A stretch of 64,000 nt of DNA, from sequence record NZ_CP012741.1. One strand, written 5' to 3'. Below, in pieces: positions 48,382 through 64,000 of the stretch (positions are counted from its first letter, which is position 1; each line of letters starts with the position of its first letter). The position numbers and the translations under genes are program-made. The notes under the pieces are model-generated. The model did not search any database. It had not been told where the DNA came from and saw only the letters and a list, made by a program, of their open reading frames with translations. The DNA comes from a plasmid.

Positions 48382-49131
48382 TTATAGTAGGTTTCGTTGC
48401 GCTTCTTTCCTCCTGTAACTTTCCCCTTGGCATTGCAAGATTTTCGCGTGATGGATCAGTCTATCTATGGCTGCCACCGTCATCACTGTATTGTCGAACA
48501 GTTCATCCCACTCCTCGAACGATTGATTTGATGTAATGATTAAGCTATATCGTTCATAGCGATGGGCTATTAGCTCGAACAGCACGCTTGTCTCCTCACT
48601 CGTTTTTTGGACATAACCTATATCATCTAAGATAAGCACACTGTACTTATCCAGCTTCATTAAGGCTTCTGATAGTTTCAGCTCTTCCTTCGCTTGTTGA
48701 AGTTGCTGTACCAGTAAGTTTGCACTCATGAACTTAACCCGCTGACCATGCTCGATCAGCTTGTATCCAAGCCCAGCAGCTAAATGCGTCTTGCCTAACC
48801 CACTGGCTCCGAACAGTAAGAGGTTGTCGCCCGTTTTCACCCATTCTCTATGGTTGGCTAAGTGCCACACTTGTCCTTTGTCTATCCCTCCCACCGCGGT
48901 AAAGTCATAGTTATCAAGGTACTTGCCCGCTGGAAGGTTGGATTCCTTTAAGTGGCGCTGCAAGCGCTTTTCTTCTCGGCTATCTAGCTCTAGTCGGCAT
49001 AACTCAGCAAGGTAACGTTCTACCGACCAACTTTGCTCGCGAGCCTTATCTGCCATTGGCTCCCATTGGGAGACAAGACTACTGAGGCGTAACGATTTGA
49101 GAAGAAGAGGGAGGATATGCTGCTCTGACAT
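48382..49131 (-). CDS. istB: IstB helper ATPase of IS21
   Basis: 249 aa, Walker A LLLFGASGLGKTHLA, DnaA-like AAA+. Confidence 0.9.
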   Translation of the reverse strand: MSEQHILPLLLKSLRLSSLVSQWEPMADKAREQSWSVERYLAELCRLELDSREEKRLQRHLKESNLPAGKYLDNYDFTAVGGIDKGQVWHLANHREWVKTGDNLLLFGASGLGKTHLAAGLGYKLIEHGQRVKFMSANLLVQQLQQAKEELKLSEALMKLDKYSVLILDDIGYVQKTSEETSVLFELIAHRYERYSLIITSNQSFEEWDELFDNTVMTVAAIDRLIHHAKILQCQGESYRRKEAQRNLL

Positions 49132-50663
49132 TAGTTTACCCCCTCTAAGATTTGTTGATAGCTCGACAGTCTGTGCTGCTCTACCTTAGGGCTCTCCGCC
49201 CAGCTTTCATCTTTTAAGAACCTATCTTCGCAGTCGAACAGTGTTGGTAGGCGGCCTATACGTATCCCATCAAGCACGAACCTGCCAACAGTATCTTCTC
49301 TCTCCGATTTGTTGGCGATATTCAATAATCTCACCATGTAGAGGCTTGCCTCATCCATCGTAAGATGCGTATCAACGTACTGCCAGATTTGGCGGTAGTC
49401 ATCGCTAGGAAGCATCTGATCTCGCCACTGACATCCCCTGAACGCTCGTGGCTTCTTCATTAAGGAGCCAATAATATGTCTGTAATCAATTTGATGCCCA
49501 CGACGACAGGACTGGGTATGTACCCTCTCTAGACTTAAGGTGTGTTCATCATGGCAGTAGATTTCTAGTGTTTTGTCATAGAGATGAACACGGACGGTTC
49601 CGCCGATAAGGCGGGACGGCACTGAGTAAGTGACTCTCTTAAGTTGGATCGTACTTGTCGTCGAGACTTTCAGTACATGAACTGTGTAATTGACGCTGGC
49701 GAACTTTGGTAGTGGTTGTAATTGTCGCTGCTCGTCAATTAGAAGCGGCTTAGAGCGGCGATTACGTCGCTCAACGAGTTGTTCTACGAACAACTCGTAC
49801 TCTTCTTTTGTGTTGAAGTCATAAGAGCCTCGTATTGCTAAGGCTTGGCGGACCTGATTTTTTAGGTGGTTATTCGCACTTTCTATCGCCCCATTCTCAT
49901 GTGCGACACCGGTATTATTTTTCGTTGGCTTGAAGCCATAATGCATGGCAAGTTGTTGGAAGTTATCAGTAAACTGACGTTCACTGGTGTTATTTTTATA
50001 CGCAGCACTTAAGCTGTCCGTTCTAACCTCAAGCGGAACACCACCTGAACGTTCAAAAGCCCCTTGTAGCCCCGTCGCAACCGCTGTAAAGCTTTCTCCA
50101 CCATAAACAACCTCGGCATGGCTCCAGCCACTGGCAGGTAAGCGATAATTGAACAGGCGATGCTCAAGCGTTTCACCTTGTATCGTGACGGTGAAATCAG
50201 CCCAGGTAAAATCCATGATCCCTTGCCGTCCAAACTCCTTTTCCTGTCGAAAGATCACCTCCTTATCTTCACCATGCAGAAGGCGCCATTTACGGACACG
50301 ACGCTCTAACGTACGTCGATGTTTCGGTAAGAATACGTCGCTATGCTCTTCACATAAGTGATCGAAAATACCGACAGGGGTAATTGTCGCGCTTCGCTCA
50401 AGGAGCGGAACGACGACAGGCTCCCAAACTGCTTCAAGAGGGTCTTTTCGTGTTCGGTATTCTCTAGGTTTGAGTGGACCTAATTGTCGTTGGCCTGATT
50501 CAATGCGACGAGCAGAGCGCTCAGAGAAGCCAGCCTTAGCGGCAGAAGTGGTTTGTGTTTTGTCTTTACGATTAGCCATGTATAGCCTTATTTGTTGATC
50601 TGTAATTCGTTTTCCTGGCACAAAGCTTTCCAATAGAGAGTTTGTCCCAATGTAGCAGATCAA
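49131..50663 (-). CDS. istA: IstA transposase of IS21 (DDE)
   Basis: 510 aa with N-terminal HTH (TQTTSAAKAGFSERSARRI) and a DDE catalytic core. The track start is TTG, so the exact start is uncertain. Confidence 0.85.
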   Translation of the reverse strand: MICYIGTNSLLESFVPGKRITDQQIRLYMANRKDKTQTTSAAKAGFSERSARRIESGQRQLGPLKPREYRTRKDPLEAVWEPVVVPLLERSATITPVGIFDHLCEEHSDVFLPKHRRTLERRVRKWRLLHGEDKEVIFRQEKEFGRQGIMDFTWADFTVTIQGETLEHRLFNYRLPASGWSHAEVVYGGESFTAVATGLQGAFERSGGVPLEVRTDSLSAAYKNNTSERQFTDNFQQLAMHYGFKPTKNNTGVAHENGAIESANNHLKNQVRQALAIRGSYDFNTKEEYELFVEQLVERRNRRSKPLLIDEQRQLQPLPKFASVNYTVHVLKVSTTSTIQLKRVTYSVPSRLIGGTVRVHLYDKTLEIYCHDEHTLSLERVHTQSCRRGHQIDYRHIIGSLMKKPRAFRGCQWRDQMLPSDDYRQIWQYVDTHLTMDEASLYMVRLLNIANKSEREDTVGRFVLDGIRIGRLPTLFDCEDRFLKDESWAESPKVEQHRLSSYQQILEGVN

Positions 50664-50712
50664 CCGGCCAATCTAATTGTCGCTGAACCGGTCAGGCTAA
50701 TTGTCGCTCAAT

Positions 50713-51020
50713 AGCCAGCATCAAGACAGAGTATTCACTTTAGTTCATTGCACTTGCTGGCTGCGCTGAACCTTTCTTTTGTCATCCGACAGGAAACTAT
50801 CGTATTAATACGTATGAGCCAGTGGAATAACACAAAAAGCCATATTGAAAATGGAAAGAATCACTGACCACATTTCCGCTTCGCGGGCCTAGCAAGGCAA
50901 CGGGGCAAATTTTGTGCCGTTACCTTCTTGGCCAACAATAACACCTGGAGAAATCTTAAGTCCCCTTCTTACTCGCTTTGCTCGCGCGTTCTAGTATTCG
51001 TCGCGCAGCGACTCATGAAA
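50713..51020. repeat. about 310-bp direct repeat, copy 2 (see 33921-34228), abutting the IS21 left end
   Basis: About 90% identical to copy 1, with most divergence in the central 60 bp. Confidence 0.8.
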
Positions 51021-51106
51021 CACTAGGTGACGCCGTCACATTGAGCGGAATGAAAAAATGGCGAAATGCCTTAACACTTCGCCATCATGTCTAATGAGTC
51101 AAGTTG

Positions 51107-51544
51107 TCAACAAAGTTCATTTCTTGCTGCTATAGCCAAGAAATGACTTCTGTCTCGATAGAGGTCGCTATTCTCTACTTTACGATCGATTACCGCTAGT
51201 AACGATTCTGGTAGAGAAATATTGACCCTTTGGCTTTTTCCGCTGTATCTGCTTACGTCAATTTCTATCTGTAACCAAACATCACAAAAACGGTAGGCTT
51301 CATCTTCTCGATAAGCCAGTGCTCCTTGGTCTTCGAGTCCTAACACATCAAAGCCATCGGCAAGCATTTCTTCTAAAATACTTTCTATCGCTTCTGCTGA
51401 ATGTGCCGCTATCTCTTTACTGCTATCTGATGCGCTATAGCAGGAATAACGGTCATTACAAAGAGCTGGAACGACGATCCCGTAAGAGGAATCTTTATCT
51501 TTTGGTGTTTCTACACCCAATGTAAACCACATCGTTACCTCCAA
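51107..51544 (-). CDS. hicB: HicB-family antitoxin (RNase-H-like fold plus C-terminal RHH)
   Basis: 145 aa. C-terminal RVNISLPESLLAVIDRKVENSDLYRDRSHFLAIAARNEL is a CopG/RHH DNA-binding module. Directly downstream of hicA. Confidence 0.75.
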   Translation of the reverse strand: MEVTMWFTLGVETPKDKDSSYGIVVPALCNDRYSCYSASDSSKEIAAHSAEAIESILEEMLADGFDVLGLEDQGALAYREDEAYRFCDVWLQIEIDVSRYSGKSQRVNISLPESLLAVIDRKVENSDLYRDRSHFLAIAARNELC

Positions 51545-51553
51545 GTGCGCGGG

Positions 51554-51736
51554 CTAGATGCCCGCGTCTTTTTTGATAGAACGTACTGTGCCTATTGGTA
51601 AGGAGCCTTTCGGGTGAGGCACCGGAAATTTTTTACCAGAGATTGGAGATTTCCAGATCTGGTGACTTCCTTTGCCATGCCTTACAAACTCACATCCTGC
51701 GGCGAGTAGTTCATCTATTAGGTCTTTAGATTTCAT
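51554..51736 (-). CDS. hicA: HicA-family mRNA interferase toxin
   Basis: 60 aa, ...HGKGSHQIWKSPISGKKFPVPHPKGSLPIGTVRSIKKDAGI matches the HicA signature. SD GGAGG upstream. Confidence 0.8.
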   Translation of the reverse strand: MKSKDLIDELLAAGCEFVRHGKGSHQIWKSPISGKKFPVPHPKGSLPIGTVRSIKKDAGI

Positions 51737-51757
51737 ATTGCCTCCGACCTAACAAGC

Positions 51758-51781
51758 ATTATACACACGCGTGTGTATAAT
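51758..51781. promoter_or_regulatory. 24-bp perfect palindrome in the hicAB promoter (candidate HicB operator)
   Basis: ATTATACACACGCGTGTGTATAAT about 22 bp upstream of the hicA start. Confidence 0.55.
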
Positions 51782-51920
51782 GTAAAGTTCGTCTGTTATA
51801 TCTATTCTAAGTTGATTTATTTGTCATTTAACATGCTGTTTTTATTCAATAAAAACAGCATGAGACAAACCATGAATCTATAGAATATTTTTCTTGAACT
51901 CTTAGTTATTCAGCGTATAG

Positions 51921-52032
51921 TAATTGAGTAATTGAGTAATTGAGTAATTGAGTAATTGAGTAATTGAGTAATTGAGTAATTGAGTAATTGAGTAATTGAG
52001 TAATTGAGTAATTGAGTAATTGAGTAATTGAG
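51921..52032. repeat. tandem array of 14 x 8 bp (TAATTGAG) ending 1 nt before the parA2 start codon; centromere-like iterons
   Basis: Perfect copies. A second array of the same unit lies at 52881-52982. Confidence 0.85.
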
Positions 52033-52033
52033 T

Positions 52034-52669
52034 ATGGCTAATATTATTGCAGTTTTGAATCCGAAAGGTGGTGCAGGAAAAACCACCATTGCTTTACATT
52101 TATCTAGAGCGTTGAAGGAACACGGCTCTGTTCTTATGGTTGATTCTGACCCTCAAGGATCAGCACGAGACTGGGCTGAACAAGGAGGTGGTGATTCTTT
52201 TCCTATTGTTGGAGTTGACCGAGCAGGGGCACTTAAAAGTACGATACAGCAAATAGCGCCTTCGTATGACTGGGTTGTTATTGATGGTGCAGCTAAGCTT
52301 GAAGAAATGGCCGCTCATGCTGTGAGTATTGCTGAGCTTATCATAATTCCAGTGCAGCCATCCCCATTAGATCTGTGGGCTTGTGAAACTTTAGTTAGTC
52401 AAATTAAGCAACGTCAAATTATTACTGACGGTATTCCGACCGCTGCATTCCAAATCTCCAGAGCTAAAAAGGGGACGACTTTGGCAAAGGATGTTCGAAA
52501 AGTTGTTGCTGAGTATGATCTTCCTTTGCTTGATGGAAATATCCATGATCGCACCGTTTTTGCTAAATCCTTATCAGAGGGCTCTACTGCTATCGATGTT
52601 GAACCTAATGGTGCAGCGGCGTTTGAAATTCGTCACTTAGTGAAGCAAATAGTTAAAGGGTTTGAGTGA
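52034..52669 (+). CDS. parA: ParA-family partition ATPase (second par locus)
   Basis: MANIIAVLNPKGGAGKTT deviant Walker A. The track ORF begins at an upstream TTG inside the repeat; the ATG at 52034 is preferred. Confidence 0.85.
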   Translation: MANIIAVLNPKGGAGKTTIALHLSRALKEHGSVLMVDSDPQGSARDWAEQGGGDSFPIVGVDRAGALKSTIQQIAPSYDWVVIDGAAKLEEMAAHAVSIAELIIIPVQPSPLDLWACETLVSQIKQRQIITDGIPTAAFQISRAKKGTTLAKDVRKVVAEYDLPLLDGNIHDRTVFAKSLSEGSTAIDVEPNGAAAFEIRHLVKQIVKGFE

Positions 52670-52889
52670 AATGTTGAAGATAAAAAAAACAGGGGAAGGG
52701 CACCAACATCCACAAATAGAGGAGATTAAGAAGGTGATAACTAAAGAAGCTACAAAACGTTTAAATGCAGAACTACCCAAGAGTTTTTATTTGCAAGTTA
52801 AAAATTTCGCCGCTGAAAACGATATGTCTATCACCGACTTAACTAAGAAAGCCTTGACAGAGTTTATGTCTCAATCAAAAATTGAGTAA
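52662..52889 (+). CDS. small RHH (ParG/CopG-like) centromere-binding partner
   Basis: 75 aa, overlaps the parA2 stop (ATGA). C-terminal SITDLTKKALTEFM is RHH-like. Its last two codons and stop lie inside the first units of the downstream TAATTGAG array. Confidence 0.6.
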   Translation: MSEMLKIKKTGEGHQHPQIEEIKKVITKEATKRLNAELPKSFYLQVKNFAAENDMSITDLTKKALTEFMSQSKIE

Positions 52890-52982
52890 TTGAGTAATTG
52901 AGTAATTGAGTAATTGAGTAATTGAGTAATTGAGTAATTGAGTAATTGAGTAATTGAGTAATTGAGTAATTGAGTAATTGAG
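52881..52982. repeat. tandem array of about 12.75 x 8 bp (TAATTGAG) starting within the 3' end of the RHH gene
   Basis: Perfect copies, same orientation as the upstream array. Confidence 0.85.
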
Positions 52983-52990
52983 TCCTCTCA

Positions 52991-53221
52991 GTGCAATCGC
53001 CAAATCCCACTGAGAGGGCATCCGACCCTATAGGAGAGACCAAGATGCAAGTGAATTGTAGCATTAACCACACCCTAAACCAAAGCGCTACTAACGAAGA
53101 ACTCGATATGTTGCTCAGTCTGATGAAGCGCAACTACTTTCGTCCCAACCAGCAAGAAGTGATTGCTGCCTTTGTTGGTCGACAAGCCATTAAAAACTTC
53201 CTGGAAGAGTTCGAGCATTAA
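52991..53221 (+). CDS. hypothetical small protein
   Basis: 76-aa ORF, possibly starting at the internal MQVNCS. No motif. Confidence 0.3.
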   Translation: MQSPNPTERASDPIGETKMQVNCSINHTLNQSATNEELDMLLSLMKRNYFRPNQQEVIAAFVGRQAIKNFLEEFEH

Positions 53222-53894
53222 CTTGTTATATAGAATGCCACTCCGTGGTGGTGATTAGATACAATATGTTAAATAGAGGAATTTGCCCTGACTTTTGCCG
53301 CTTAGGGAGCAGACCGAGCGACAACCTGGTGAAAGTAGGGGCTTTCCTCTCTAAGAACCCTCAAAACCATTCTGAAAGTTAATTACAGTTTTTGGCCAAA
53401 TGTTAATTGATTGTGATGCGTTTTCATTTCGTCGTGATCTTGTCTCTTAATCCCCAAAATGATCGGTTTTCCTTTCTATTTGATAGGGCTTCAAAATGAA
53501 ACTCGGATGTAAGTCGTTTTTGGACATAAACGTGTTTATAGTTTGCTCTATTTGGTCTGATAGGTATTAGAAAAAGTATGGATATTGCCTCTATGAAGTA
53601 CTTTTTGGGATACAAAAAGACCGCCACGATGGACGGCCATTTAACAACACCCAGATCAGTATAAGTCTGATTTTTTCGTTCAGTATCTTTATGAGAATAG
53701 CTAACGCGTGTGTACAACCTTGCAACTTTCATCGATGGGCAGCCAAATAAGGTATAGCTCATTTGAGCTAGTGCATAACGTTAAAATGTATAATAAAACA
53801 CAAAAACTATACACGATGCGTTAGATATGTATAATTTAAGGGGATATTTATACATTAACTTGTCGCCAAGTATAAAAAAGGAAGCAATTTAGCT

Positions 53895-54974
53895 ATGTCT
53901 ACACGCATTGCGCCATTGCCACTGGCCAACATTGAACAATGGGAAACCCGTGCGGTGCTAAAAAAAGCGGCTGAAGCACATCGTTACTTGGCCGAGCTAA
54001 AAGGGGTAGCGGCAAGTATTCCCGATGAGGCCATTTTAATCAACACATTGTCCTTGCAAGAAGCAAAAGATAGCTCTGAAGTTGAAAACATCGTCACCAC
54101 CCATGATGAGCTCTACAAAGCAAATCTTTTTGAAGAGGCCATTACCAACCCCGCAACCAAAGAAGTGCAAAACTACGCTTTTGCATTAAAACAAGGCTTT
54201 CACAGTGCACGGCAAAGTAAGCTCATTCGCTTAAGCGATATTCTCGCTATTCAACAAAATCTTGAGTACAGCACCGCGGGGTTACGTAAGTTACAGGGAG
54301 CTGATTTGAAAAATGCACGGACTGACGAAGTGGTGTACACTCCACCACAACATGCTGAGGACATTACCTACTTGATGGATAACCTCGTGCAGTTTATCAA
54401 TAATGATGAACTGTGCGACGCCGATCCGCTGGTAAAAATGGCGATTATCCACCATCAGTTTGAAAGTATTCACCCATTTTACTATGGCAATGGATGCACT
54501 AGTCGTATCATCAACATTCTGTATTTGGTCACTAAAGATCTACTCAATTTACCCGTGTTGTATTTAAGCCGTTTTATTATTCATCACAAAGCAGAGTACT
54601 ACGCTAACTTACAAGCAGTACGTGATACCGGCAATTGGGAACCTTGGTTATTGTTTATGCTTGATGACATTATCGAAACTGCGCAAAATACCATTTCGTT
54701 GATCACCGAAATGAAAACTCTAATGTCGAATGTCAAATACGGTATTCGCGAGCAACTCCCCAAGCTTTATAGCCAAGATTTACTCAATAACCTGTTTAAC
54801 CATCCCTACACAAAAATAGACTTTATTGTTGAAGAACTCGGTGTAACGCGTATTACCGCCACTAAGTACTTAGAACAACTAGTCGAGCACGGCTTTTTAA
54901 TGAAGCAGAAAGTTGGTCGTGTCAATTACTACATCAACCAGCCACTGTGCCAATTATTAATCGTACACAGCTAA
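53895..54974 (+). CDS. Fic/DOC-family protein with a degenerate active-site motif and a C-terminal winged-helix domain
   Basis: HPFYYGNGCTSR in place of canonical HPFx[D/E]GNGRxxR. C-terminal VTRITATKYLEQLVEHGFLMKQKVGRVNYY is HTH-like. Lies 25 bp upstream of hsdM. Confidence 0.75.
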   Translation: MSTRIAPLPLANIEQWETRAVLKKAAEAHRYLAELKGVAASIPDEAILINTLSLQEAKDSSEVENIVTTHDELYKANLFEEAITNPATKEVQNYAFALKQGFHSARQSKLIRLSDILAIQQNLEYSTAGLRKLQGADLKNARTDEVVYTPPQHAEDITYLMDNLVQFINNDELCDADPLVKMAIIHHQFESIHPFYYGNGCTSRIINILYLVTKDLLNLPVLYLSRFIIHHKAEYYANLQAVRDTGNWEPWLLFMLDDIIETAQNTISLITEMKTLMSNVKYGIREQLPKLYSQDLLNNLFNHPYTKIDFIVEELGVTRITATKYLEQLVEHGFLMKQKVGRVNYYINQPLCQLLIVHS

Positions 54975-54999
54975 AGCGTATTTTTAGATAGAGAACATT

Positions 55000-56595
55000 A
55001 TGACCAACAATGACATAGTCCAAAAACTCTGGAACTTGTGTGACGTACTACGTGACGACGGGATTAACTACAGTGATTATGTTACCGAGCTGGTACTGCT
55101 GCTGTTCATCAAAATGGTGCATGAAAACACCGAAGCAGGCACGCTAAAAAAACACCCGTTACCAGAAGGCTGCCGATGGATAGACATCAACAAAAAATCT
55201 GGCGTAAACCTGCTCAATGATTACAAAGATATTTTATTAGCTTTGTCTACGGGTAAACGCTCTGAAGCAGATCCAAAAGAGCCGGGAAAAACCATCGAGG
55301 TTCAAATTCACGATGACTCTCTCATCAGCGCCATTTATGTAGATGCCCAAACCCGCCTGCGAGAGCCGCGTCACCTAGAGCAAATGATTAAAACGCTGGA
55401 TCAAATCGACTGGTTTAGCGCGCAAAAAGATGGCTTGGGTGATTTATACGAAGGCTTATTAGAAAAAAATGCCAGCGAAACCAAATCAGGTGCAGGCCAA
55501 TACTTTACGCCACGCGCGCTGATTAACGTCATGGTGCGCTGCATCAAACCACAAGTAGGCGAAGTGATTCAGGATCCGGCTGCCGGCACAGCCGGCTTTT
55601 TGGTGGCCGCCGACCAATATATGCGTAACCAGACCGACGATTATTTTAACCTTGATGCCAAGCAAGTCGCCTTCCAAAAAAAACAAGCCTTTGTTGGAGT
55701 CGAACTAGTACCCAACACCCGCCGCCTAGCCCTAATGAACTGTTTGTTACATGGAATGGAAGGTAATGATGAAGGTGTGGTGCACTTGGGTAACGCTCTA
55801 GGTGATGCAGGTAAAAATCTAAAAAGAGCCAATATTATTTTGGCCAACCCACCGTTTGGTACCAGTAAAGGCGGCGAAGCCAGCAACACCCGTGATGACT
55901 TAACCTATAAAACCAGCAACAAACAACTGGCGTTTTTGCAGCATATTTACCGTAACCTAGAACCCGGCGGCCGCGCTGCTGTAGTCGTGCCCGATAATGT
56001 ATTATTTGACGCAGGCGTTGGCACCGATGTACGCCGAGACCTGATGCACAAGTGTAACCTGCACACTATCTTGCGCCTACCTACCGGTATTTTTTACGCT
56101 CAAGGCGTAAAAACCAATGTGTTGTTCTTTACCAAAGGCAGCGCGGCCGACAAGTTCCAGCAGGAAAACTGCACCCAAAATATCTGGGTGTACGACTTGC
56201 GCACCAATATGCCCAGTTTTGGTAAACGCACTCCCTTTGGAGACAGCCATTTAGCACCGTTTGAGAAAGTTTATGGCGACAATGCCGATGGAACCAGTAC
56301 GCGTTTAGAAGGCGACTGGAGCTTTGACGCTCTTAGTGTTGAGGCTTCTTCCGACAATGAAAACCAAGGTGTAGATAATCAGTTAGCTCAGTCACGCTGG
56401 CGCTGCTTTAGCCGTGAATGGGTAGCCAATAACAAAGGCGATTCGCTGGACATTAGTTGGTTAAAAGACAAAGACAGCGTGGATGTGACCGACTTGCCCG
56501 AGCCGGAGGCATTGGCGCGCGAAGCCAAAGATGAATTAACCACAGCACTAAGTGAAATTGATGAGTTATTGGCAGCGTTGGAAGGGGGGAATTGA
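55000..56595 (+). CDS. hsdM: type I restriction-modification N6-adenine DNA methyltransferase subunit
   Basis: 531 aa, N-terminal HsdM_N, catalytic NPPF (ILANPPFGTSKGG), AdoMet-binding region. Confidence 0.9.
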   Translation: MTNNDIVQKLWNLCDVLRDDGINYSDYVTELVLLLFIKMVHENTEAGTLKKHPLPEGCRWIDINKKSGVNLLNDYKDILLALSTGKRSEADPKEPGKTIEVQIHDDSLISAIYVDAQTRLREPRHLEQMIKTLDQIDWFSAQKDGLGDLYEGLLEKNASETKSGAGQYFTPRALINVMVRCIKPQVGEVIQDPAAGTAGFLVAADQYMRNQTDDYFNLDAKQVAFQKKQAFVGVELVPNTRRLALMNCLLHGMEGNDEGVVHLGNALGDAGKNLKRANIILANPPFGTSKGGEASNTRDDLTYKTSNKQLAFLQHIYRNLEPGGRAAVVVPDNVLFDAGVGTDVRRDLMHKCNLHTILRLPTGIFYAQGVKTNVLFFTKGSAADKFQQENCTQNIWVYDLRTNMPSFGKRTPFGDSHLAPFEKVYGDNADGTSTRLEGDWSFDALSVEASSDNENQGVDNQLAQSRWRCFSREWVANNKGDSLDISWLKDKDSVDVTDLPEPEALAREAKDELTTALSEIDELLAALEGGN

Positions 56596-58256
56596 TGACA
56601 ACTCCTTTTCCCAAAGAGTGGAAGTCAGTCACTGGCTCTGAATTTGTTGTAGATCCGAAATCAGATATTGTTGATGGTCCATTTGGTTCAAATTTGAAAT
56701 CATCTGAATATATAGACTCAGGTGTACCAATTGCTCGAATTCAAAATGTAAAAAGGTTTAACTTTATTGACAAAAACATAAGGTTTGTTAGTGAAGAAAA
56801 AGCTGAAGAGCTTCAAAGGCACAGTTTTGCATGCGGCGATATTTTAATAACTAAGCTTGGTGATCCTTTAGGCTTGGCCTGCGAGGTCCCAGAATCCTTT
56901 GAATATGGAATTATTGTTGCTGATTTAGTTCGTCTAAGACCAAATCTAGGAGTTTGCTTCAAATCTTATCTTACCTACTTATTAAACTCCGAGATTGTAA
57001 TTAAACAAATCGAATTACATGTTAAGGGAACTACTCGACCAAGAATTAATTTAGGTGTAATCAGAGGTCTGAGCCTACCTCTCCCTCCACTAGCCGAACA
57101 AAAAGTGATTGCTGATAAACTTGACATCCTTTTAGCACAGGTGGAAACCAGTAAAGCACGCCTCGAGCGCATCCCCGAGATCCTAAAAACTTTCCGCCAA
57201 TCCGTCCTTGCCGCCGCCGTGAGTGGCAAATTGACCAAAGAGTGGCGTGAAGGGAATGAGGTTTCAATTGAAAGCTGGGTTTCGACCAATATAGGAGAAT
57301 TAGCGCAGGTAGCTACTGGCAAAACGCCAAAAAGAACTAATGCTGAGTATTGGGATGGTGGCAATATTCCTTGGTTGACAAGTTCTGCAACAGGATCTGC
57401 ATTTACATTTGAAGCGGAACAATTCGTTACAGAACTGGCAGTTAAAGAATGTACTTTGAAATTATTTCCAATAGGTACGCTTTTGTTGGCAATGTATGGT
57501 GAAGGTAAAACGCGAGGCCAAGTAACAGAGTTACAGTTAGAATCCACATGTAATCAAGCATGTGCAGCAATTCTTGTTGATGAAACAAAAGTAAGCAAAG
57601 AGTTTCTTAAATTGCGCTTACAAGAGAATTATGAAGAGACAAGAAAAGCAGCAGTTGGTGGAGCTCAGCCCAACTTAAACTTGAGTAAAGTTAGAGAAAT
57701 TACTGTAGAACTGCCGAGCGAACCCGAACAAACCGAAATCGTCCGCCGTGTCAAAGGGCTATTCGCCTTTATCGATCGTATCGAGCAAAGCGCCAATACT
57801 GCCCTTAAGCGTGTAAATAACCTCACCCAAGCCATCCTAGCTAAAGCTTTTCGCGGTGAGCTTACAGCTGAATGGCGCGCAGTTAACCCTGAGTTGGTCA
57901 GCGGTGAAAATAGCGCCGAAGCATTATTGGAAAAGATTAAGGCAGAACGCGAAGTGCTAAAAAAACAGCCTAAACTGAAACGTACCGCCGTAAAAAAAAG
58001 GACAGGTAGCATCATGAATAAACAGATCATCAAAGTTGTTGATGCCTTAAAAGAAGCTGGACAACCGTTAAGTGGTCAGCAATTACTCGCGGCAGCAGGC
58101 TACCCGAGTAATAGCAGTACAGACCAATTGGAACAGTTTTTTCTGGATATTCGAGAGGCATTAACTTCTGATAAATCCATTATTAAGCTTGAACGCAGTA
58201 ATAATAGCCAAGACTGGTTCGCTTTGGCTGAAACAGCCGAGACGAATAAAGCCTAA
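56592..58256 (+). CDS. hsdS: type I RM specificity subunit with a C-terminal extension of about 130 aa
   Basis: Two target-recognition domains separated by conserved central (LAEQKVIADKLDILLAQVE...) and distal (EPEQTEIVRRVKGLFAFIDRIEQ...AKAFRGELT) helices. Extra Lys-rich linker plus an about 90-aa tail. Start overlaps the hsdM stop (ATGA). Confidence 0.85.
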   Translation: MMTTPFPKEWKSVTGSEFVVDPKSDIVDGPFGSNLKSSEYIDSGVPIARIQNVKRFNFIDKNIRFVSEEKAEELQRHSFACGDILITKLGDPLGLACEVPESFEYGIIVADLVRLRPNLGVCFKSYLTYLLNSEIVIKQIELHVKGTTRPRINLGVIRGLSLPLPPLAEQKVIADKLDILLAQVETSKARLERIPEILKTFRQSVLAAAVSGKLTKEWREGNEVSIESWVSTNIGELAQVATGKTPKRTNAEYWDGGNIPWLTSSATGSAFTFEAEQFVTELAVKECTLKLFPIGTLLLAMYGEGKTRGQVTELQLESTCNQACAAILVDETKVSKEFLKLRLQENYEETRKAAVGGAQPNLNLSKVREITVELPSEPEQTEIVRRVKGLFAFIDRIEQSANTALKRVNNLTQAILAKAFRGELTAEWRAVNPELVSGENSAEALLEKIKAEREVLKKQPKLKRTAVKKRTGSIMNKQIIKVVDALKEAGQPLSGQQLLAAAGYPSNSSTDQLEQFFLDIREALTSDKSIIKLERSNNSQDWFALAETAETNKA

Positions 58257-58271
58257 CGCTAAGGAACGTTT

Positions 58272-59873
58272 GTGAAAGTCGATAAATTACATATTCGCTC
58301 TCGTTTTAAAAACCTTGAAAACGTGAGCGTGGACTTTGATGAAGACCACCTAATGACAGTGGTGGTAGGTCGCAATGGTTCGGGAAAATCTAACGTGCTG
58401 GAGGCTTTGGTTGCGATATTTCGCAACCTTGATTTGGGCAAAGCTCCTCCTTTTTCATACGAGTTAGTTTACCGACTTGGCGAGCCCCACAAGCCAAATC
58501 AAACCAGTGAGCAATGGTTGGAAATTACTATTGATGCTGACCCAACTCGTGGCACAATAACTAAGCAATACCAAGTACAATTACGCGACTTGTTATCGGA
58601 TGAAGCACCTCAAGACCTTTTAGAAGAAAAGTCGGCAGGCCAAATCATTCCTTTCTCAAAAGTAAAGCGAGACAAAGAAGGTAAAGCGCCGTATCTGCCT
58701 AACTATGTCTTTGCTTACTATTCAGGCCCCAGTGATCGCTTAGAAAATCACTTTAAGAAACATCGCACTGATTTTTACCGTCGCCTACTTAAAGATGAGC
58801 TGGATTTAAAAGGTGATATTCGCCCTCTGTTCTATGCCAAACCCCACCACAGTCAATTTGTACTATTGGCCTTTTTCTTATCAGCTAAAGACAGTGCAGA
58901 AAAAGCTTTTTTACTTGAGCACTTAGGCATTGAAGGTTTAGACAGTATTCACTTTGTGATGCGTCAACCCGGTTGGGCTAAACAGAAAGGTGAATTATTT
59001 TGGGGCGCAAGAGGTGTTGTTCGCCGCTTTTTAGATGAACTAATTAAACACACACTGTCACCTGTCAAAGTTACGCGTCAGGAAGATACTTCTTTGACCG
59101 GCAGCAATATTCGCAATGAGTTCTTTCATCTGTTTTTACCCGACGTAAACGCTCTGCGTGACTTTGCCAAAGACCTCAGCCCAGATGAGCTATTTAAAAT
59201 GCTCGAAAGTACGCTGCTTTCCGAAATCATCTCTGAAGTTAGCATTCGGGTGAAAGTTTCAAGCAGTCAAGAACCACTCACTTTTCGAGAACTTAGTGAA
59301 GGTGAACAGCAGCTTCTTACTGTGTTGGGCTTGCTCAAGTTCACTGGTGGTAAAGATTCCCTATTTCTACTCGACGAACCAGACACCCACCTCAACCCTT
59401 CATGGGCAGTGAAATACTTAAAATTCCTGCGTGAATTCGTGCCCAACCACGAAACTAGCCATTTGTTGATGGTGACCCATCACCCACTTGCTATTGCAGA
59501 GTTAAAGAAAGAACAAGTTCAAGTGATGAAACAGATCGGAGCGCAACAAATAACTGCGAAGATGCCTGGTGAAAGCCCACGGGGAATGGGAATCAACCTT
59601 ATCTTGCGTAGCGATATGTTTGGTTTACAGACAACGCTTGATGATGAAACGAATCAAAAACTTACGGCCAGAAATGCGCTAGCAGCTCAGGAAACGCTAT
59701 CTAAAGAAAAACTTGTTCGTGAAGAAAGTCATGAACCTGAAGACGAAGAGCAGTATTTGTCTAGACTGAACTCCGAACTCGAAGTCCTGGGTTTTAACTT
59801 AGCGACCGATGATCCAGATTACCTAGAGTTCCTTCGCGAGAAGTATCACTCGAAAAATTCGGGGGAGCACTAA
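58272..59873 (+). CDS. AAA_15/AAA_21-type ATPase, Septu PtuA-like
   Basis: GTG start with SD AAGGAA. N-terminal LHIRSRFKNLENVSVDF...VVGRNGSGKSNVLEAL (Walker A). Distal LFLLDEPDTHLNP (Walker B/D-loop) and LLMVTHHP (H-loop). Confidence 0.75.
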   Translation: MKVDKLHIRSRFKNLENVSVDFDEDHLMTVVVGRNGSGKSNVLEALVAIFRNLDLGKAPPFSYELVYRLGEPHKPNQTSEQWLEITIDADPTRGTITKQYQVQLRDLLSDEAPQDLLEEKSAGQIIPFSKVKRDKEGKAPYLPNYVFAYYSGPSDRLENHFKKHRTDFYRRLLKDELDLKGDIRPLFYAKPHHSQFVLLAFFLSAKDSAEKAFLLEHLGIEGLDSIHFVMRQPGWAKQKGELFWGARGVVRRFLDELIKHTLSPVKVTRQEDTSLTGSNIRNEFFHLFLPDVNALRDFAKDLSPDELFKMLESTLLSEIISEVSIRVKVSSSQEPLTFRELSEGEQQLLTVLGLLKFTGGKDSLFLLDEPDTHLNPSWAVKYLKFLREFVPNHETSHLLMVTHHPLAIAELKKEQVQVMKQIGAQQITAKMPGESPRGMGINLILRSDMFGLQTTLDDETNQKLTARNALAAQETLSKEKLVREESHEPEDEEQYLSRLNSELEVLGFNLATDDPDYLEFLREKYHSKNSGEH

Positions 59874-60682
59874 TGCGTTGGATTTGTAAGGACGAAATAG
59901 AGGAATGCTTGACTGCGGCTTGGAGGGAGATGGCAGATCAGGCAAAAGCTGAGCTGCTGGCTGCACCAAATGAAGCAGCAAGAAAAGCCATTCTCAAAAA
60001 AGTCGCTTCTTCAAAAGTTTGGCGCGATTTCTATGACTTACTACCCGACGTTTACAAACGTAAATGTTGGTATTGTGAAGCCGAGGAAATACGCTCGGAT
60101 ATGCCAGTTGACCATTTCAGACCGAAAAATAAAGTTGAAGATGATAATCAGCATGATGGCTACTGGTGGCTAGCATTCGATTGGGAGAACTATCGGTGTG
60201 CTTGTACATTCTGTAATAGCCGTAGGGTCTTTGAGGAAACTGAAGGCGGTAAAGCATGTAGATTTCCCCTTGAAAATCCTCAAGACAGAGCCTTTACTCC
60301 TGCAGATCAGGTAAAGCTTCGTAACGAACGACCTTACTTCCTTGACCCATTTAATCCGGATGATGAAAAGCTACTTTGGTTTGATAACGATGGGCTACCA
60401 GAGGCTAAGCCAGCAGCAACAGCAGAACAAAAATTAAAGGTTGAGAACTCCATTGAAATTTTTCACCTCAATGAAGCCAGAATAACAAGAGCTAGAAATA
60501 AAATTCGTTTAGAGGTGGAACGACAAGTTAAAAAAATAAAGGGTAATGATGATGTATCAGCTGCAAAAGCAAAGTTACGCCGTATGGTGCGAGATTCGGA
60601 AAAACTATCAAGGGCGGCGGTTGTCTATTTACGAGCACATAGAAATTTACAAGAAGTTAAAGATATTTTGCGTTTAGATTAA
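59873..60682 (+). CDS. HNH endonuclease, Septu PtuB-like
   Basis: CWYCEA...DHFRPKN...NYRCACTFCNS is an HNH signature. Start overlaps the PtuA-like stop (TAATG); 269 aa. Confidence 0.75.
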   Translation: MRWICKDEIEECLTAAWREMADQAKAELLAAPNEAARKAILKKVASSKVWRDFYDLLPDVYKRKCWYCEAEEIRSDMPVDHFRPKNKVEDDNQHDGYWWLAFDWENYRCACTFCNSRRVFEETEGGKACRFPLENPQDRAFTPADQVKLRNERPYFLDPFNPDDEKLLWFDNDGLPEAKPAATAEQKLKVENSIEIFHLNEARITRARNKIRLEVERQVKKIKGNDDVSAAKAKLRRMVRDSEKLSRAAVVYLRAHRNLQEVKDILRLD

Positions 60683-61014
60683 GTTGTACATTCAATTTAA
60701 AATAGCTGATACACATAGCTTTTACTTAGCCATCATTATAATATCCCCAAATCGTTGCCGAAATTTGAGATGAACGGTAATACCATTATCGAATGGCTGT
60801 TTAAAAGACCTACTTTTTATGACTAACAGCTTGTAAAATTGCCAACACCATACTGTTTGCAAGTTGTTTTGCATTTGAATGCGCCCAACAAAAAAGCTAC
60901 CGCACATCCATTAGTATTTACTATTAAAGGTCGCTGATTTGAAATTGCATTAGAGCAAAAACTTTAACTAATAATGGGGCAAAAATGTGTGGAATCGTAT
61001 GTGCAAAGGTGGCG

Positions 61015-61287
61015 TTAATGCGGTAACTCACGACCAAGAGCCATTACGTACTTCACCGCCTCTCTCAGTACAAGTTCATTAAAGTTGATCGATAGCCCTT
61101 CATCGGTCAATACAATTATTAAAAGTATGTCATCGTCCACCAAGTCGTTCATTAAATGCCAATCGATTTCTGCGGAATCGGTTCGCATCAAAGCTTGACT
61201 CATCATATCAAGAAGCTCGACTAAACATTTGTCACTATCCAGTTTTGCTCGATGGATTTGGGCTAGAAGGAAGGTCTTTGTATTCAT
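61015..61287 (-). CDS. hypothetical acidic protein, downstream partner of the 61432-62013 gene
   Basis: 90-aa ORF in the same orientation, 145 bp downstream of the preceding gene. Confidence 0.4.
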   Translation of the reverse strand: MNTKTFLLAQIHRAKLDSDKCLVELLDMMSQALMRTDSAEIDWHLMNDLVDDDILLIIVLTDEGLSINFNELVLREAVKYVMALGRELPH

Positions 61288-61431
61288 ACCACTAGGGTAG
61301 TGACTTTTGAATATCAGTAAGTATGAGATTCGGCTGATATATTGTGACCTTTAACAAACTTCTGGGCAGAGGCTAGCCACCTTCCCTAGAGTTGAATAAC
61401 TTTATATGCCCTAAGTGGTTTTACGTGAACC

Positions 61432-62013
61432 TTAATTCGGGTGCACGACGATATGCGCTTGGTGTGAACTGGCATTCCACTCCTTCATTTCAGCAACGAA
61501 AAGTCCGTGCTGATTTATTGAATCGATAAGTTCTGGCGCGCGTTCCAACTGAATCAGCATCGAAAGCGGGGCAACTTGGTTGTGCTCATGGTCAAAACCA
61601 TGCTCGATTTGCTCTTCAAGCATATAGAGGATCCCTGTCTCGGCTTCGCTGCCTTCCTCAAACAAACGGGATTCGATCCCTTCCACATCATAGAGGTATA
61701 CCAGTAGGTTATAGAGCTTTTCGGCTCCGGCGAGTTTTGTGCGATTGGCTTGCGAATTTAAATCGTACAATCTCATCTCTAGATTCCCTCCTGGTCTTCT
61801 GGCTACATTGAGCATGAGCTTAATATCTTTCTTGATATTCGATAACGCTTTGTTATTCAGTTTCGGCTTTAGGTATCGGATCAAAATGTCGTTACGAGTC
61901 GAAACTGGTACGTGACGAGTGGTTTCTGATACTTTGCTAAGTAAGTGAAGCAAGGCGTGAGTCACTAGATTATGCAGGTTGTGGTAATACTCAAAATCTC
62001 GTTTGATTTGCAT
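61432..62013 (-). CDS. hypothetical protein with a truncated paralog at 47797-47990
   Basis: 193 aa with no recognised motif. Its 3' terminal 190 bp are about 80% identical at DNA level to an unannotated fragment next to IS21. Confidence 0.5.
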   Translation of the reverse strand: MQIKRDFEYYHNLHNLVTHALLHLLSKVSETTRHVPVSTRNDILIRYLKPKLNNKALSNIKKDIKLMLNVARRPGGNLEMRLYDLNSQANRTKLAGAEKLYNLLVYLYDVEGIESRLFEEGSEAETGILYMLEEQIEHGFDHEHNQVAPLSMLIQLERAPELIDSINQHGLFVAEMKEWNASSHQAHIVVHPN

Positions 62014-62077
62014 CGCGGTTTGGGTTTGCTCTACATGATATGAAATACGGGCGTTCGTTGGTCTGCATCATAACACG

Positions 62078-62117
62078 ACTGAATCAGGAAGAGGGCAAAC
62101 CCTCTTCCTGATTCAGT
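62078..62117. promoter_or_regulatory. 18-bp perfect-stem hairpin or palindrome (4-nt loop) 65 bp upstream of the 61432-62013 gene
   Basis: ACTGAATCAGGAAGAGGG-caaa-CCCTCTTCCTGATTCAGT, with no U-run on either strand. Confidence 0.6.
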
Positions 62118-62620
62118 TGTATGCCCCTAATTGATGCTTGCAACAAAAGCTTGCATAGCGATAAAGGCACATCAATGGCTTACTGTTACTTTTGCAGCAA
62201 AACTTTTCATAAACCATTTATCAATATCTTTAAAAGCAACTCAACAGACTTTGTAAGTTACTGAAAGAAAGAGCTATGCAGTCTTATGCTGCAAATTTGC
62301 AAATCCTTTTGCAATTTATGCAGACTTATATTGCAAACAACATAATGTTTGGTAACGAACTCTTGAAACAACCTTAAGACTAATCGAAACGGACACTGTG
62401 AGTATGCTAGCAATTGCTGATATGGCATTTTTAAATATAATAGACATATATGACGGGTGGGTGTAGGGTGTTTTTGTGAGCTACAAACAAGTGAGCCACC
62501 CTCGAAAGGGTGGCTCTTAAACTCGCTACCTGTTGTCAATACTGTTTCCAGCGGAAGAGGACAGGGCTATCACAACAAAAGGCTACGCCTCAGTTGCAGT
62601 AAATATACATAATAATTTCA

Positions 62621-63367
62621 TTGAGGGCAAATGTTTTGGATTTGGAAGAGATCAAGCAAGGACTTTCTACAGAAAAACTAGAAACCTATCGTCAGGTGCT
62701 CGACTGTAAATCTGACAGTGAGTTAATCGCCGTCTATATGGCAATGCAAAGTATAATGTCTCAGTTTTTCTCAGTGGTTCAGCTACTTGAAGTGACGTTG
62801 AGAAATTCAATCCATAAATCAGCTACAGAATGCTTTGAAGATGATGAATGGTATAAGCGTATCCCGATCAGCCACGAGTCAAAAAAACAGGTCGATTTTG
62901 CAGAACAGCAATGTTTGGATGATGTTGGTACTCGATACACTAGCAACGACTTAGTTTCTCGCCTACCTTTCGGTTTTTGGGTGCACATGCTTCATAGAGA
63001 CTACAACAATCCACGCGATAAAGAACATAACCTTTGGCAGACTCAACTAGACAAGTGCTTCCCTAACGCAAAAGCACAGAATGTAAAACTCAACACCCTA
63101 TTTCAGAGAATGGGTTCTCTTAACAAATTTAGAAATAGACTATTTCACCATGAACCTGCATGGAAAGGCCGACACACCAAAAATAGATCTGATGCAGTTC
63201 AATACCTACTAAAAATGTTTAACGAACACATGGAAGCTATTGGCTTACTATCAACATCAAAACGAGAGCTGATTGCTGTATTAGGGTTTGAAGAACGGTT
63301 CTTGCAAGAATGCGATATTAAAAGTCTAGAGCGTTTTGAGTCGATACTAAGTCCAGACGAGAAGTGA
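62621..63367 (+). CDS. Abi_2-family (AbiD/AbiF-like) abortive-infection protein
   Basis: 248 aa. LPFGFWVHML...LNKFRNRLFHHEPAW matches the Abi_2 hallmark (FG.L....RN.IAHHE.I). Confidence 0.6.
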   Translation: MRANVLDLEEIKQGLSTEKLETYRQVLDCKSDSELIAVYMAMQSIMSQFFSVVQLLEVTLRNSIHKSATECFEDDEWYKRIPISHESKKQVDFAEQQCLDDVGTRYTSNDLVSRLPFGFWVHMLHRDYNNPRDKEHNLWQTQLDKCFPNAKAQNVKLNTLFQRMGSLNKFRNRLFHHEPAWKGRHTKNRSDAVQYLLKMFNEHMEAIGLLSTSKRELIAVLGFEERFLQECDIKSLERFESILSPDEK

Positions 63368-63426
63368 TTTAAATATTCTACTAGACATATTTGACAGGTT
63401 GTTTTAAAAGGTTATACTAGACGCAT

Positions 63427-63612
63427 ATGACAGGTAAAACTATTACAGAGTTTCAACGCATTGCTAATGCAAAAGGTTGGAAATTTGAAGATATAGCTAA
63501 ACGTTGGGGTAAGTCCGAACGCCAGTTATCACGGATAGCAAAGGCGGGTGAACAGCGTGATTTAGACGCTGTGAATGGCTTACCAAACAAAGACAGCGAA
63601 CAAAAGGGGTAA
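63427..63612 (+). CDS. small HTH DNA-binding protein
   Basis: 61 aa. GKSERQLSRIAKAG is helix-turn-helix-like. Confidence 0.4.
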   Translation: MTGKTITEFQRIANAKGWKFEDIAKRWGKSERQLSRIAKAGEQRDLDAVNGLPNKDSEQKG

Positions 63613-63616
63613 AATC

Positions 63617-63961
63617 ATGGGTAGAGCAAAACCAGTCACTATTGCAGGGCGTTTATTTGAAAAACAAGGGGATGCAGTAAGCTATTTTACAGAACAAAAG
63701 GAAGAAAGGTTAGCAAGTGGTCTAATTCAAGAAGGAGAGCTATACGATGCCCTTAAGGATGTATACGAGCGATACTGTGACAACTCCCCAGGTTACGAAC
63801 TAAATGGCCGATTGATCACTGCATTCAGTGTCGCCTATGAGAAACGTCAAAACAACGGAGTGTGGGCTACACATGCTTGTTATAAAGTGTATTTTAGCAA
63901 TGATGAAATTAGGCCGTTCTCAATTGCAAAAGCTGTCAGATCTGTAGCTAGTAACTCTTAA
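63617..63961 (+). CDS. hypothetical protein
   Basis: Internal start MGRAKPVTIAGRLFEKQGDAV with SD AAAGGGG. 114 aa, no motif. Confidence 0.4.
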   Translation: MGRAKPVTIAGRLFEKQGDAVSYFTEQKEERLASGLIQEGELYDALKDVYERYCDNSPGYELNGRLITAFSVAYEKRQNNGVWATHACYKVYFSNDEIRPFSIAKAVRSVASNS

Positions 63962-64000
63962 GGGGAAATTAGCCCTCTTACAAACCACAATATCTAGTAT

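Follow-up and report, generated by a model that had tools for sequence, protein, structure and literature searches.

A Septu-like PtuA-PtuB pair in an hsdR-less type I operon of a conjugative Vibrio plasmid, and a candidate link between the two through HsdS

Type I restriction-modification (RM) systems are textbook enzymes, and hsdM-hsdS pairs that come without hsdR, the gene of the restriction subunit, are usually dismissed as orphan methylases. Septu is among the most widespread anti-phage systems, and we know of no infection sensor for it. Both are represented at a single locus of the plasmid record NZ_CP012741.1, in the stretch of 64,000 nucleotides analysed here (the window), where fic, hsdM and hsdS are followed by an ATPase gene and an HNH nuclease gene that resemble ptuA and ptuB of Septu. 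How do the two halves belong together? An earlier account made from the letters alone (the sequence-only reading) left two possibilities: a methylase standing beside an independent Septu, or a PtuAB pair that takes the place of HsdR. The genes, and the two parts of HsdS on which the argument turns, are the following.

53895–54974, plus strand: fic, encoding a SoFic-like protein (Pfam and PADLOC matches)
55000–56595, plus strand: hsdM (N6_Mtase; PADLOC MTase_I)
56592–58256, plus strand: hsdS, with a TTG start at 56592 and an alternative ATG at 56595
56592–58013, plus strand: HsdS core of the EcoKI/EcoBI type, two variable target-recognition domains (TRDs) with central and C-terminal conserved helices
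58014–58256, plus strand: extra C-terminal winged-helix domain of HsdS, residues 475–554, beginning at an invariant Met
58272–59873, plus strand: ptuA-like gene with a GTG start
59873–60682, plus strand: ptuB-like HNH nuclease gene

The five tightly packed plus-strand genes of 53895–60682, and the compact defence cassette that they make up, are as the sequence-only reading had described them. Its assignment of the last two genes to a Septu arrangement is upheld by searches with hidden Markov models (HMMs) and by profile searches of the Protein Data Bank (PDB), neither of which places the pair in a family unrelated to Septu. The ATPase scores 689 bits with the PADLOC PtuA model (PDLC00293) over residues 1–529, has Pfam matches to AAA_15, AAA_21 and SMC_N, and retains intact Walker A (GRNGSGKS), signature (LSEGE) and Walker B (LFLLDEP) motifs, which are conserved throughout the relatives. 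In the PDB its profile finds the Septu PtuA structure 8ee4 first (E=1.1e-14) and then retron PtuA, with E-values ranging from 1e-14 to 1e-12; as a single sequence it matches 8EE4 at E=4e-7, and its nearest structural relative outside PtuA is AriA of PARIS. The nuclease has no Pfam match, scores 333 bits with the PADLOC PtuB model (PDLC00330), and falls under the cut-off of both TIGR02646 (49 bits) and the NCBIfam retron PtuB model (48 bits); its PDB profile search returned PtuB proteins only (22bv, 9kjx, 8ee7). Its motif reads CWYCE...VDHFRPK...N...CN, with D80, H81, N106 and N115 invariant in 16 diverse homologues.

Four other assignments were rejected. For PARIS, AriA models give 79 bits (against 689 for PtuA), and the partner is an HNH protein in place of a Toprim/DUF4435 AriB. 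The MADS equivalogs MAD2 (86 bits, cut-off 720), MAD3 (26 bits, cut-off 420) and MAD5 (47 bits, cut-off 400) all fall short. For a type I-A retron, there is no reverse transcriptase (RT) among the five open reading frames (ORFs) and no Rfam family in 50000–64000. TIGR04435, annotated as 'restriction system-associated AAA family ATPase', gives 156 bits, below its cut-off of 300. Since a Salmonella relative with the same type of neighbourhood (L052) passes that cut-off with 423 bits, the PtuA of the window is placed in a sister family of TIGR04435, and a link of such ATPases to restriction systems is already on record in annotation. A model of PtuA built with AlphaFold2 (AF2) was too poor for use, with a mean predicted local distance difference test (pLDDT) score of 57 from 29 sequences, all at least 76% identical.

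The relation between the two halves of the locus was examined in three locally HMM-annotated samples, comprising 25 species-representative loci, plasmid and E. coli records, and 80 metagenomic loci in which PtuA identity spans 91% down to 41%; together they gave 114 non-redundant loci. The gene directly upstream of ptuA is hsdS in 86 of the 88 loci with enough upstream DNA, with gaps of 0–16 nt (median 4.5 nt) or overlapping genes, and ptuB directly follows ptuA in 100 of 101. The two exceptions to the hsdS adjacency are L038, whose record itself annotates an S subunit, and L079, where a 5'-truncated ptuA lies by an unrelated gene. Two operon orders occur, (R)-M-S-A-B and (R)-S-A-B-M (letters for hsdR, hsdM, hsdS, ptuA and ptuB), the latter with ptuAB between hsdS and hsdM, and the adjacency to hsdS holds across this rearrangement as well as across PtuA divergence to 41%. 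In the reverse direction, the order M-S-AAA-partner occurs in each of the 11 E. coli genomes that have this class of HsdM, and also with HsdM relatives down to 66% identity (K. variicola, Salmonella). The family extends over Gamma-, Beta- and Alphaproteobacteria and Verrucomicrobia, and includes E. coli, Salmonella, Acinetobacter, Vibrio and K. pneumoniae; viral contigs yielded just two full-length relatives, at 42% identity, so that the system is not phage-borne in the main.

The neighbourhoods of PtuA orthologues had been named by the sequence-only reading as the place where recurrent hsdMS linkage might be seen, and there it is found. Members of this PtuAB clade are essentially never free-standing; they belong to type I operons as a built-in accessory. 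The choice between an independent Septu and a substitute for HsdR is thereby replaced by a third situation, in which PtuAB is integrated into type I operons. Septu is otherwise a self-contained two-gene system, whereas the pair considered here has a tailed hsdS upstream of it, in the 86 loci just mentioned, and hsdM in the same operon. The locus is a set of Septu parts working inside a type I chassis, and in the window it is neither a stand-alone Septu nor equipped with HsdR.

An autonomous Septu that had been inserted into a type I locus or added at its end, beside a plasmid-protecting orphan methyltransferase and with no coupling between the two, is a further possibility. PADLOC would label the locus plain Septu, and defence genes lodged within type I operons have been described before (Payne 2024). 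Septu has been found embedded in Hma, most Septu systems are free-standing (Payne 2021, Payne 2024), TgvAB, embedded in a V. cholerae type I system, acts on its own, and the slot between hsdR and hsdM in the same operons holds varied inserts (diverse Fic and Abi). Against this stand the near-absolute hsdS adjacency, for which the truncated ptuA of L079 is the single clear exception, its survival through divergence and operon rearrangement, and the short or overlapping junctions. To these is added the evidence from HsdS described below, where an extra domain, in the comparison of EcoBI with an Enterobacter locus, occurs only together with ptuAB and tracks the PtuA type. We consider uncoupled neighbours improbable.

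The methyltransferase and specificity genes had both been called canonical. For hsdM this holds: the protein matches N6_Mtase (E=2.5e-74) and PADLOC MTase_I (725 bits), and has motif I (DPAAGTAGF) and motif IV (NPPF) of a type I N6-adenine methyltransferase, with NPPF retained in the HsdM of 70 of 70 relatives. It is 54% identical to the HsdM of EcoBI, an identity at which formal type IA membership of the window is uncertain. HsdS has the two TRDs of a type I specificity subunit, with Methylase_S matched in two stretches, PADLOC Specificity_I at 433 bits over residues 5–458, and a C-terminal helix closely like that of EcoBI. At the DNA level, hsdS aligns with its relatives only in conserved regions, at 57076–57259 and from 57726. 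TRD1 and TRD2 reassort independently of each other, equally in HsdR-less and HsdR-bearing clades and even between HsdR-less loci with 98% identical HsdM. The description of hsdS as canonical does not hold in full, on account of the extra C-terminal domain at 58014–58256.

This tail of about 80 amino acids is present in all PtuA-linked HsdS proteins and is preceded by a disordered linker rich in Lys and Arg. Following the last conserved HsdS helix there are about 120 residues, even in proteins where the tail HMM fails, compared with 42 in EcoBI. The EcoBI protein has no tail and ends soon after '...ALLEKIKAER', while the HsdS of an Enterobacter locus (L014) extends for about 80 residues more and is followed by ptuAB. 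The HsdM and HsdR of L014 are 94.5% and 89% identical to those of EcoBI (E. coli BL21), so its backbone is of the EcoKI/EcoBI kind; the two loci differ by the tail and ptuAB and, as far as their sequences go, are a natural minimal pair for these additions. The AF2 model of the tail has a winged-helix topology (pLDDT about 80), and its best fold matches in the PDB are kleisin C-terminal winged helices that sit on SMC heads (5h66_C, E=0.012; 6qpq; 4i99). Since generic MarR-type winged helices score similarly, the kleisin resemblance is only a lead. A protein-database search with the tail alone yielded no more than 29 hits, all of them short fragments or split ORFs.

The tail varies with PtuA more closely than with the protein that carries it. 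Over 63 loci (1,953 pairs), Spearman's rho between the tail and the N-terminal 400 residues of PtuA is 0.83, compared with 0.62 between the tail and the adjacent HsdS helix and 0.60 between the tail and HsdM. In pairs of loci whose HsdM proteins are more than 70% and whose PtuA proteins less than 60% identical, tail identity is 0.29 and that of the HsdS helix 0.61. By the PtuA C-terminus and by PtuB, the loci fall into types that agree with each other and reassort against HsdM classes. As the tail tracks PtuA, the moving unit is [tail]-PtuA-PtuB, grafted onto different M/S backbones. We propose that the tail is a PtuA-docking adaptor, and on the best reading PtuAB would be tethered through it to the complex of two HsdM and one HsdS subunits (M2S1).

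A short homopolymer just before the tail may bear on how constant such a tether would be.

57992–57999, plus strand: A8 homopolymer in the basic linker just before the tail (direct reading)

Runs of 6–10 A occur at the same spot of hsdS in many relatives. In a K. pneumoniae locus (L058, 9970–10003), an A10 run breaks hsdS in two, a core of 488 aa and a separate tail ORF of 80 aa that overlap by ATGA; the common form in K. pneumoniae is a fused HsdS of 570 aa. The A-tract could let HsdS switch between a tethered and a free tail, by phase variation or by slippage during transcription; errors of sequencing in some of the assemblies are also possible.

What, then, of the missing restriction subunit? 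As the sequence-only reading had held, only the M and S subunits of a type I system are present in the window. The large ORFs of this F-type conjugative plasmid encode TraI, TraD, TraG, TraC, TraN, TrbI and a TonB receptor; tblastn of three HsdR proteins against the whole window gave nothing at E<=1e-3; and upstream of fic, where remains of an hsdR were looked for with permissive settings as well, there was only noise. Nor does the gene lie just outside, as far as a sibling plasmid (L027, 99.6% identical) can tell, where the 10 kb that follow ptuB contain no large ORF. Among relatives, 43 of 61 assessable lineages have HsdR and 18 lack it. The upstream ORFs of 1,140–1,210 aa in relatives are HsdR, with ResIII, Helicase_C and EcoEI_R_C domains, and their motifs D...EAK, GxGKT and DE(A/C)H are intact in all 13 examined. 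Since these relatives keep an intact HsdR, a general replacement of HsdR by PtuAB is unsupported, and with it the general form of the second possibility left by the sequence-only reading.

In a narrower form it stands, since whole clades lack HsdR and an HsdR-independent function of M-S-PtuAB is in them a live possibility. In the HsdM tree, a class of 511 aa is uniformly HsdR-less (Pseudoalteromonas, Vibrio, Advenella, Acinetobacter, Trabulsiella, Enterobacter, E. coli), with the K. pneumoniae HsdM of this class listed in 2,313 collection blocks, and plasmid-borne S-A-B-M forms are HsdR-less as well. The window and a Shewanella insulae locus (L002) are HsdR-less exceptions nested within an HsdR-bearing HsdM clade, a position that marks them as secondary losses of hsdR. 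HsdR-less M-S-PtuA-PtuB cassettes are very common in K. pneumoniae chromosomes (L062–L069).

The loss at this locus concerns a unit that is itself mobile.

53507–60988: mobile cassette of 7,482 bp, comprising fic-hsdM-hsdS-ptuA-ptuB with 388 bp upstream and 306 bp downstream

These coordinates delimit exactly the stretch that the plasmid has in common, at 99.76% identity, with an integrase island in a chromosome (L028). That island is otherwise unrelated to the plasmid, and homology ends at both edges of the cassette, so the five genes move together as a unit that already lacks hsdR. It is a 7.5-kb mobile unit on an F-type conjugative Vibrio plasmid, found with five full-length ORFs in two unrelated mobile contexts and on several sibling plasmids; its PtuA is matched at 100% identity by a V. 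parahaemolyticus/V. alginolyticus protein. Apparent 20-aa deletions in HsdM and HsdS of two sibling contigs (L029, L031) are runs of N in the assemblies and not true indels. No tRNA and no Rfam family lies close to the ends of the cassette. In Enterobacteriaceae (L041–L048), cassettes of this kind end small integrase/AlpA/RadC/DUF2787 islands by yicG-ligB.

Such a history of loss raises the possibility that the locus is simply the remnant of an R-Fic-M-S-A-B operon that erodes from its 5' end, in which case restriction, if any, would need a cognate HsdR supplied by a host chromosome. The nested position of the window HsdM is what would be expected, the Fic protein of the window has the only broken motif among 13 homologues (see below), and resident type IA HsdR is common, with an EcoBI-type hsdR in 938 of 5,426 E. 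coli genomes. The hsdR gene of EcoKI-type loci is moreover its own transcription unit upstream, so that its loss leaves hsdMS intact. These points have to be set against a five-gene unit with clean boundaries and full-length ORFs that is 99.8% identical in two mobile contexts and on sibling plasmids, the lack of any hsdR remnant, and the intact motifs of M, S, PtuA and PtuB. Furthermore, the HsdR proteins of the cognate class in relatives are just 40% identical to EcoBI HsdR, which makes assembly across families doubtful. Decay, with or without complementation in trans, seems to us very improbable.

Two readings in which the halves are coupled carry more weight. In the one we favour, though with slightly less than even confidence, PtuAB would be an abortive effector or a guard in the manner of PrrC. 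M2S1 would methylate a bipartite target on plasmid and host DNA and would serve at the same time as a platform that holds PtuA-PtuB through the HsdS tail. PtuAB would remain latent there until infection or plasmid entry perturbs the complex, a possible trigger being DNA-mimic anti-restriction proteins that bind M2S, and, once set free or switched on, would act as an abortive or backup nuclease. The logic would be that of PrrC-EcoprrI and of retron Eco7, where the RT and its multicopy single-stranded DNA (msDNA) sequester PtuAB. The intact HsdR motifs of relatives indicate that PtuAB is an add-on and no substitute nuclease, and a guard role would make HsdR optional, which would explain the HsdR-less lineages.

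The PtuAB pairs of the stand-alone Septu Ec-B88 and of retron Eco7 are tRNA-Tyr nucleases that infection triggers and a partner sequesters (PMC13096335, PMC11555353). PrrC and PARIS are recognised RM guardians (PMC12707154), and PrrC occurs almost only inside type I RM loci (Payne 2024). The locus shares with PrrC-EcoprrI, and with RloC, a nuclease gene in a type I operon by hsdS and an ABC-type NTPase module; PrrC itself sets the paradigm of a nuclease that the type I enzyme keeps latent and that anti-restriction factors activate. In contrast, PrrC is a single polypeptide in which a HEPN nuclease domain is fused to the NTPase, and it is encoded at a type IC locus, while here there are two proteins, a separate HNH nuclease, EcoKI-related loci and a putative link through the HsdS winged helix. 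The type I-A retrons (Ec78/Eco7, 'Septu type II') are similar in that PtuAB is coupled to a sensor or sequestering module encoded upstream, but that module is HsdM-HsdS here and not an RT with msDNA, and the NCBIfam retron PtuA and PtuB models score far below their cut-offs.

Several observations weigh against a guard. The kleisin-like match of the tail is weak, as given above, and the co-variation of tail and PtuA could partly stem from adjacency on the DNA and not from contact between the proteins. We found no experiment on any member of the M-S-PtuAB family in the literature. The retention of NPPF in all 70 loci and the free reassortment of TRDs in HsdR-less clades fit a sequence-specific restriction better, and two published findings point the same way: the HsdR-less HsdMS of K. 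pneumoniae NUH66 restricts plasmids site-specifically by way of a nuclease left unidentified in that study, in a SAM-dependent (S-adenosylmethionine) and ArdB-sensitive manner (Oo et al. 2025, PMC12456054), and PtuAB of E. coli ATCC 25922 is reported to cut DNA.

The retained NPPF, the TRD reassortment and the two published findings also support an HsdR-independent restriction, in which M2S1 on unmethylated sites would recruit or license the tethered PtuA-PtuB to cut, with HsdM methylation protecting the host. PtuAB would then be a second effector in lineages with HsdR and the sole restriction nuclease in HsdR-less lineages, the window included. The deep and stable HsdR-less clades (the 511-aa HsdM clade, all 11 E. 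coli genomes, the K. pneumoniae collection blocks and the plasmid-borne S-A-B-M forms) speak for it, with TRDs that are shuffled even between loci of nearly identical HsdM, and M and S precede the nuclease gene, as they do in RM systems. However, more than two-thirds of the assessable relatives (the 43 of 61 above) have a competent HsdR and no need of PtuAB as a nuclease, and the two best-characterised PtuAB pairs, those of Eco7 and Ec-B88, cleave tRNA-Tyr and not DNA. The cassettes lie on frequently moving elements, where a DNA-restricting PtuAB with no known control of establishment would endanger new hosts. NUH66 resembles the HsdR-less loci in having HsdM and HsdS with no HsdR at all, but its published account does not give the genes downstream of hsdS, ptuAB included, and it has McrBC upstream, unlike the common K. 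pneumoniae M-S-PtuA-PtuB cassette, which is found in another context. Restriction by PtuAB is thus possible but rather unlikely in our estimation. Its structural version, in which a kleisin-like docking of the tail on the PtuA head would make M2S1-PtuA-PtuB an HsdR-independent, methylation-sensitive restriction enzyme, is likewise held as doubtful.

With regard to Septu itself, the pair has the familiar organisation, with an ABC/SMC-type ATPase gene overlapping a downstream HNH nuclease gene, strong PADLOC PtuA and PtuB matches and intact catalytic residues. The clade differs in lying after hsdS inside type I operons whose HsdS has a dedicated extra domain, and it is only distantly related to the proteins studied by experiment (8EE4/8EE7; Ec-B88). 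With regard to type IA RM (EcoKI/EcoBI), relatives have the order hsdR-hsdM-hsdS and closely similar conserved HsdS helices, and the window differs by the lack of hsdR, an HsdS about 90 aa longer and the appended ptuAB. Our literature search turned up nothing on M-S-PtuAB systems, the HsdS tail, the near-obligate linkage or the HsdR-less clades.

For annotation, the practical rule would be that an HsdS about 90 aa over the usual length, followed by AAA_15/21 and then HNH, be treated as one system and not as 'orphan MTase plus Septu'. The family is abundant, clinical Enterobacterales included, and it offers a concrete and testable pairing of sensor and effector for a Septu subtype, as well as a candidate explanation for 'type I-like' restriction without HsdR, which curbs plasmid uptake in clinical Klebsiella. 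If PtuAB does restrict DNA, these loci would be a new type I-like RM class with a Septu module as effector; the 'missing nuclease' of restricting HsdR-less HsdMS such as that of NUH66 would be identified, and Septu would gain a non-self sensor. If PtuAB is only a PrrC-like guard, it would still add to PrrC a further, independent family of RM guardians.

The first gene of the cassette encodes a Fic protein with Pfam Fic_N, Fic and SoFic-like_C domains and a PADLOC SoFic score of 365 bits; the NCBIfam SoFic score of 352 bits lies under the cut-off of 550. Its active site was compared by alignment with SoFic structures and 12 relatives. The active-site motif is HPFYYGNGCTSR, where the canonical HPFxDGNGRxGR is found in 12 of the 12 relatives; compared with the general HxFx(D/E)GNGRxxR, a Y stands in place of D/E and a C in place of the first R, so that the D and the first R are both missing. 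Among the 13 homologues the motif of the window is the sole degenerate one, which bears out the description of this Fic as degenerate. The inhibitory motif SSEVEN is kept, and the active site is dead-looking, to judge from these residues. The intergenic slot between hsdR and hsdM (L003–L025, L037) is an insertion hot spot, containing Fic proteins 32–77% identical to that of the window or an Abi-family gene (L037), or nothing (L014, L017).

The junctions between the genes are tight throughout, and a putative promoter precedes the first of them.

53808–53835, plus strand: promoter-like site TATACA-16-TATAAT, matching 10 of 12 consensus positions (consensus match only), about 60 nt upstream of fic

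This is the best sigma-70-like match of the region. By direct reading, AGGAAG precedes the ATG of fic, and fic and hsdM are separated by 25 nt. The hsdM/hsdS overlap, given as ATGA in the sequence-only reading, is instead TGATG (1 nt) with the ATG at 56595 or TTGA with the TTG at 56592, while the TAATG overlap of ptuA and ptuB was correctly read and has GGGGGAG just 5' of it. The gap of 15 nt between hsdS and ptuA was likewise found as described, including a Shine-Dalgarno sequence of its own (AAGGA, 7 nt upstream of the GTG), and ptuA and ptuB follow hsdS in translational coupling.

The surroundings of the cassette contain further defence and maintenance genes. At 62621–63367 (plus strand) there is an ORF of 248 aa with no Pfam match that PADLOC assigns to the single-gene system PD-T4-5 (E=2.4e-31); this match 2 kb downstream of the cassette makes the plasmid stretch a small defence island. 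An ORF of 128 aa at 63575–63961 (plus strand) gives a weak PADLOC HamC/DUF3223 match (E=3.9e-5) and no Pfam match. On the other side, a perfect tandem array of the 8-bp unit AATTGAGT, thirteen copies long, occupies 52880–52983, directly downstream of a ParA-like gene (52028–52669) and a small partner ORF (52662–52889); it probably serves the plasmid as its partition (centromere-like) site. Just upstream of these partition genes lies a HicA toxin/HicB antitoxin pair (51107–51736, minus strand).

Further away, an IS21-like element at 48382–50663 (minus strand) encodes a 510-aa transposase with a Mu-transposase C-terminal domain and a 249-aa IstB-type ATPase. The PADLOC call of 'DrmD' at 48382–49131 as a defence gene was rejected, since the protein is most likely this IstB-type ATPase. 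The sibling plasmid L027 shows homology only from 50711 onwards, so the insertion may be peculiar to the plasmid studied here. A gene for a TonB-dependent receptor at 39008–41257 (minus strand) lies in a stretch of low GC content (33–42% in a profile of 32–48 kb), between the transfer region and the defence and maintenance region, which suggests that this stretch is mosaic cargo.

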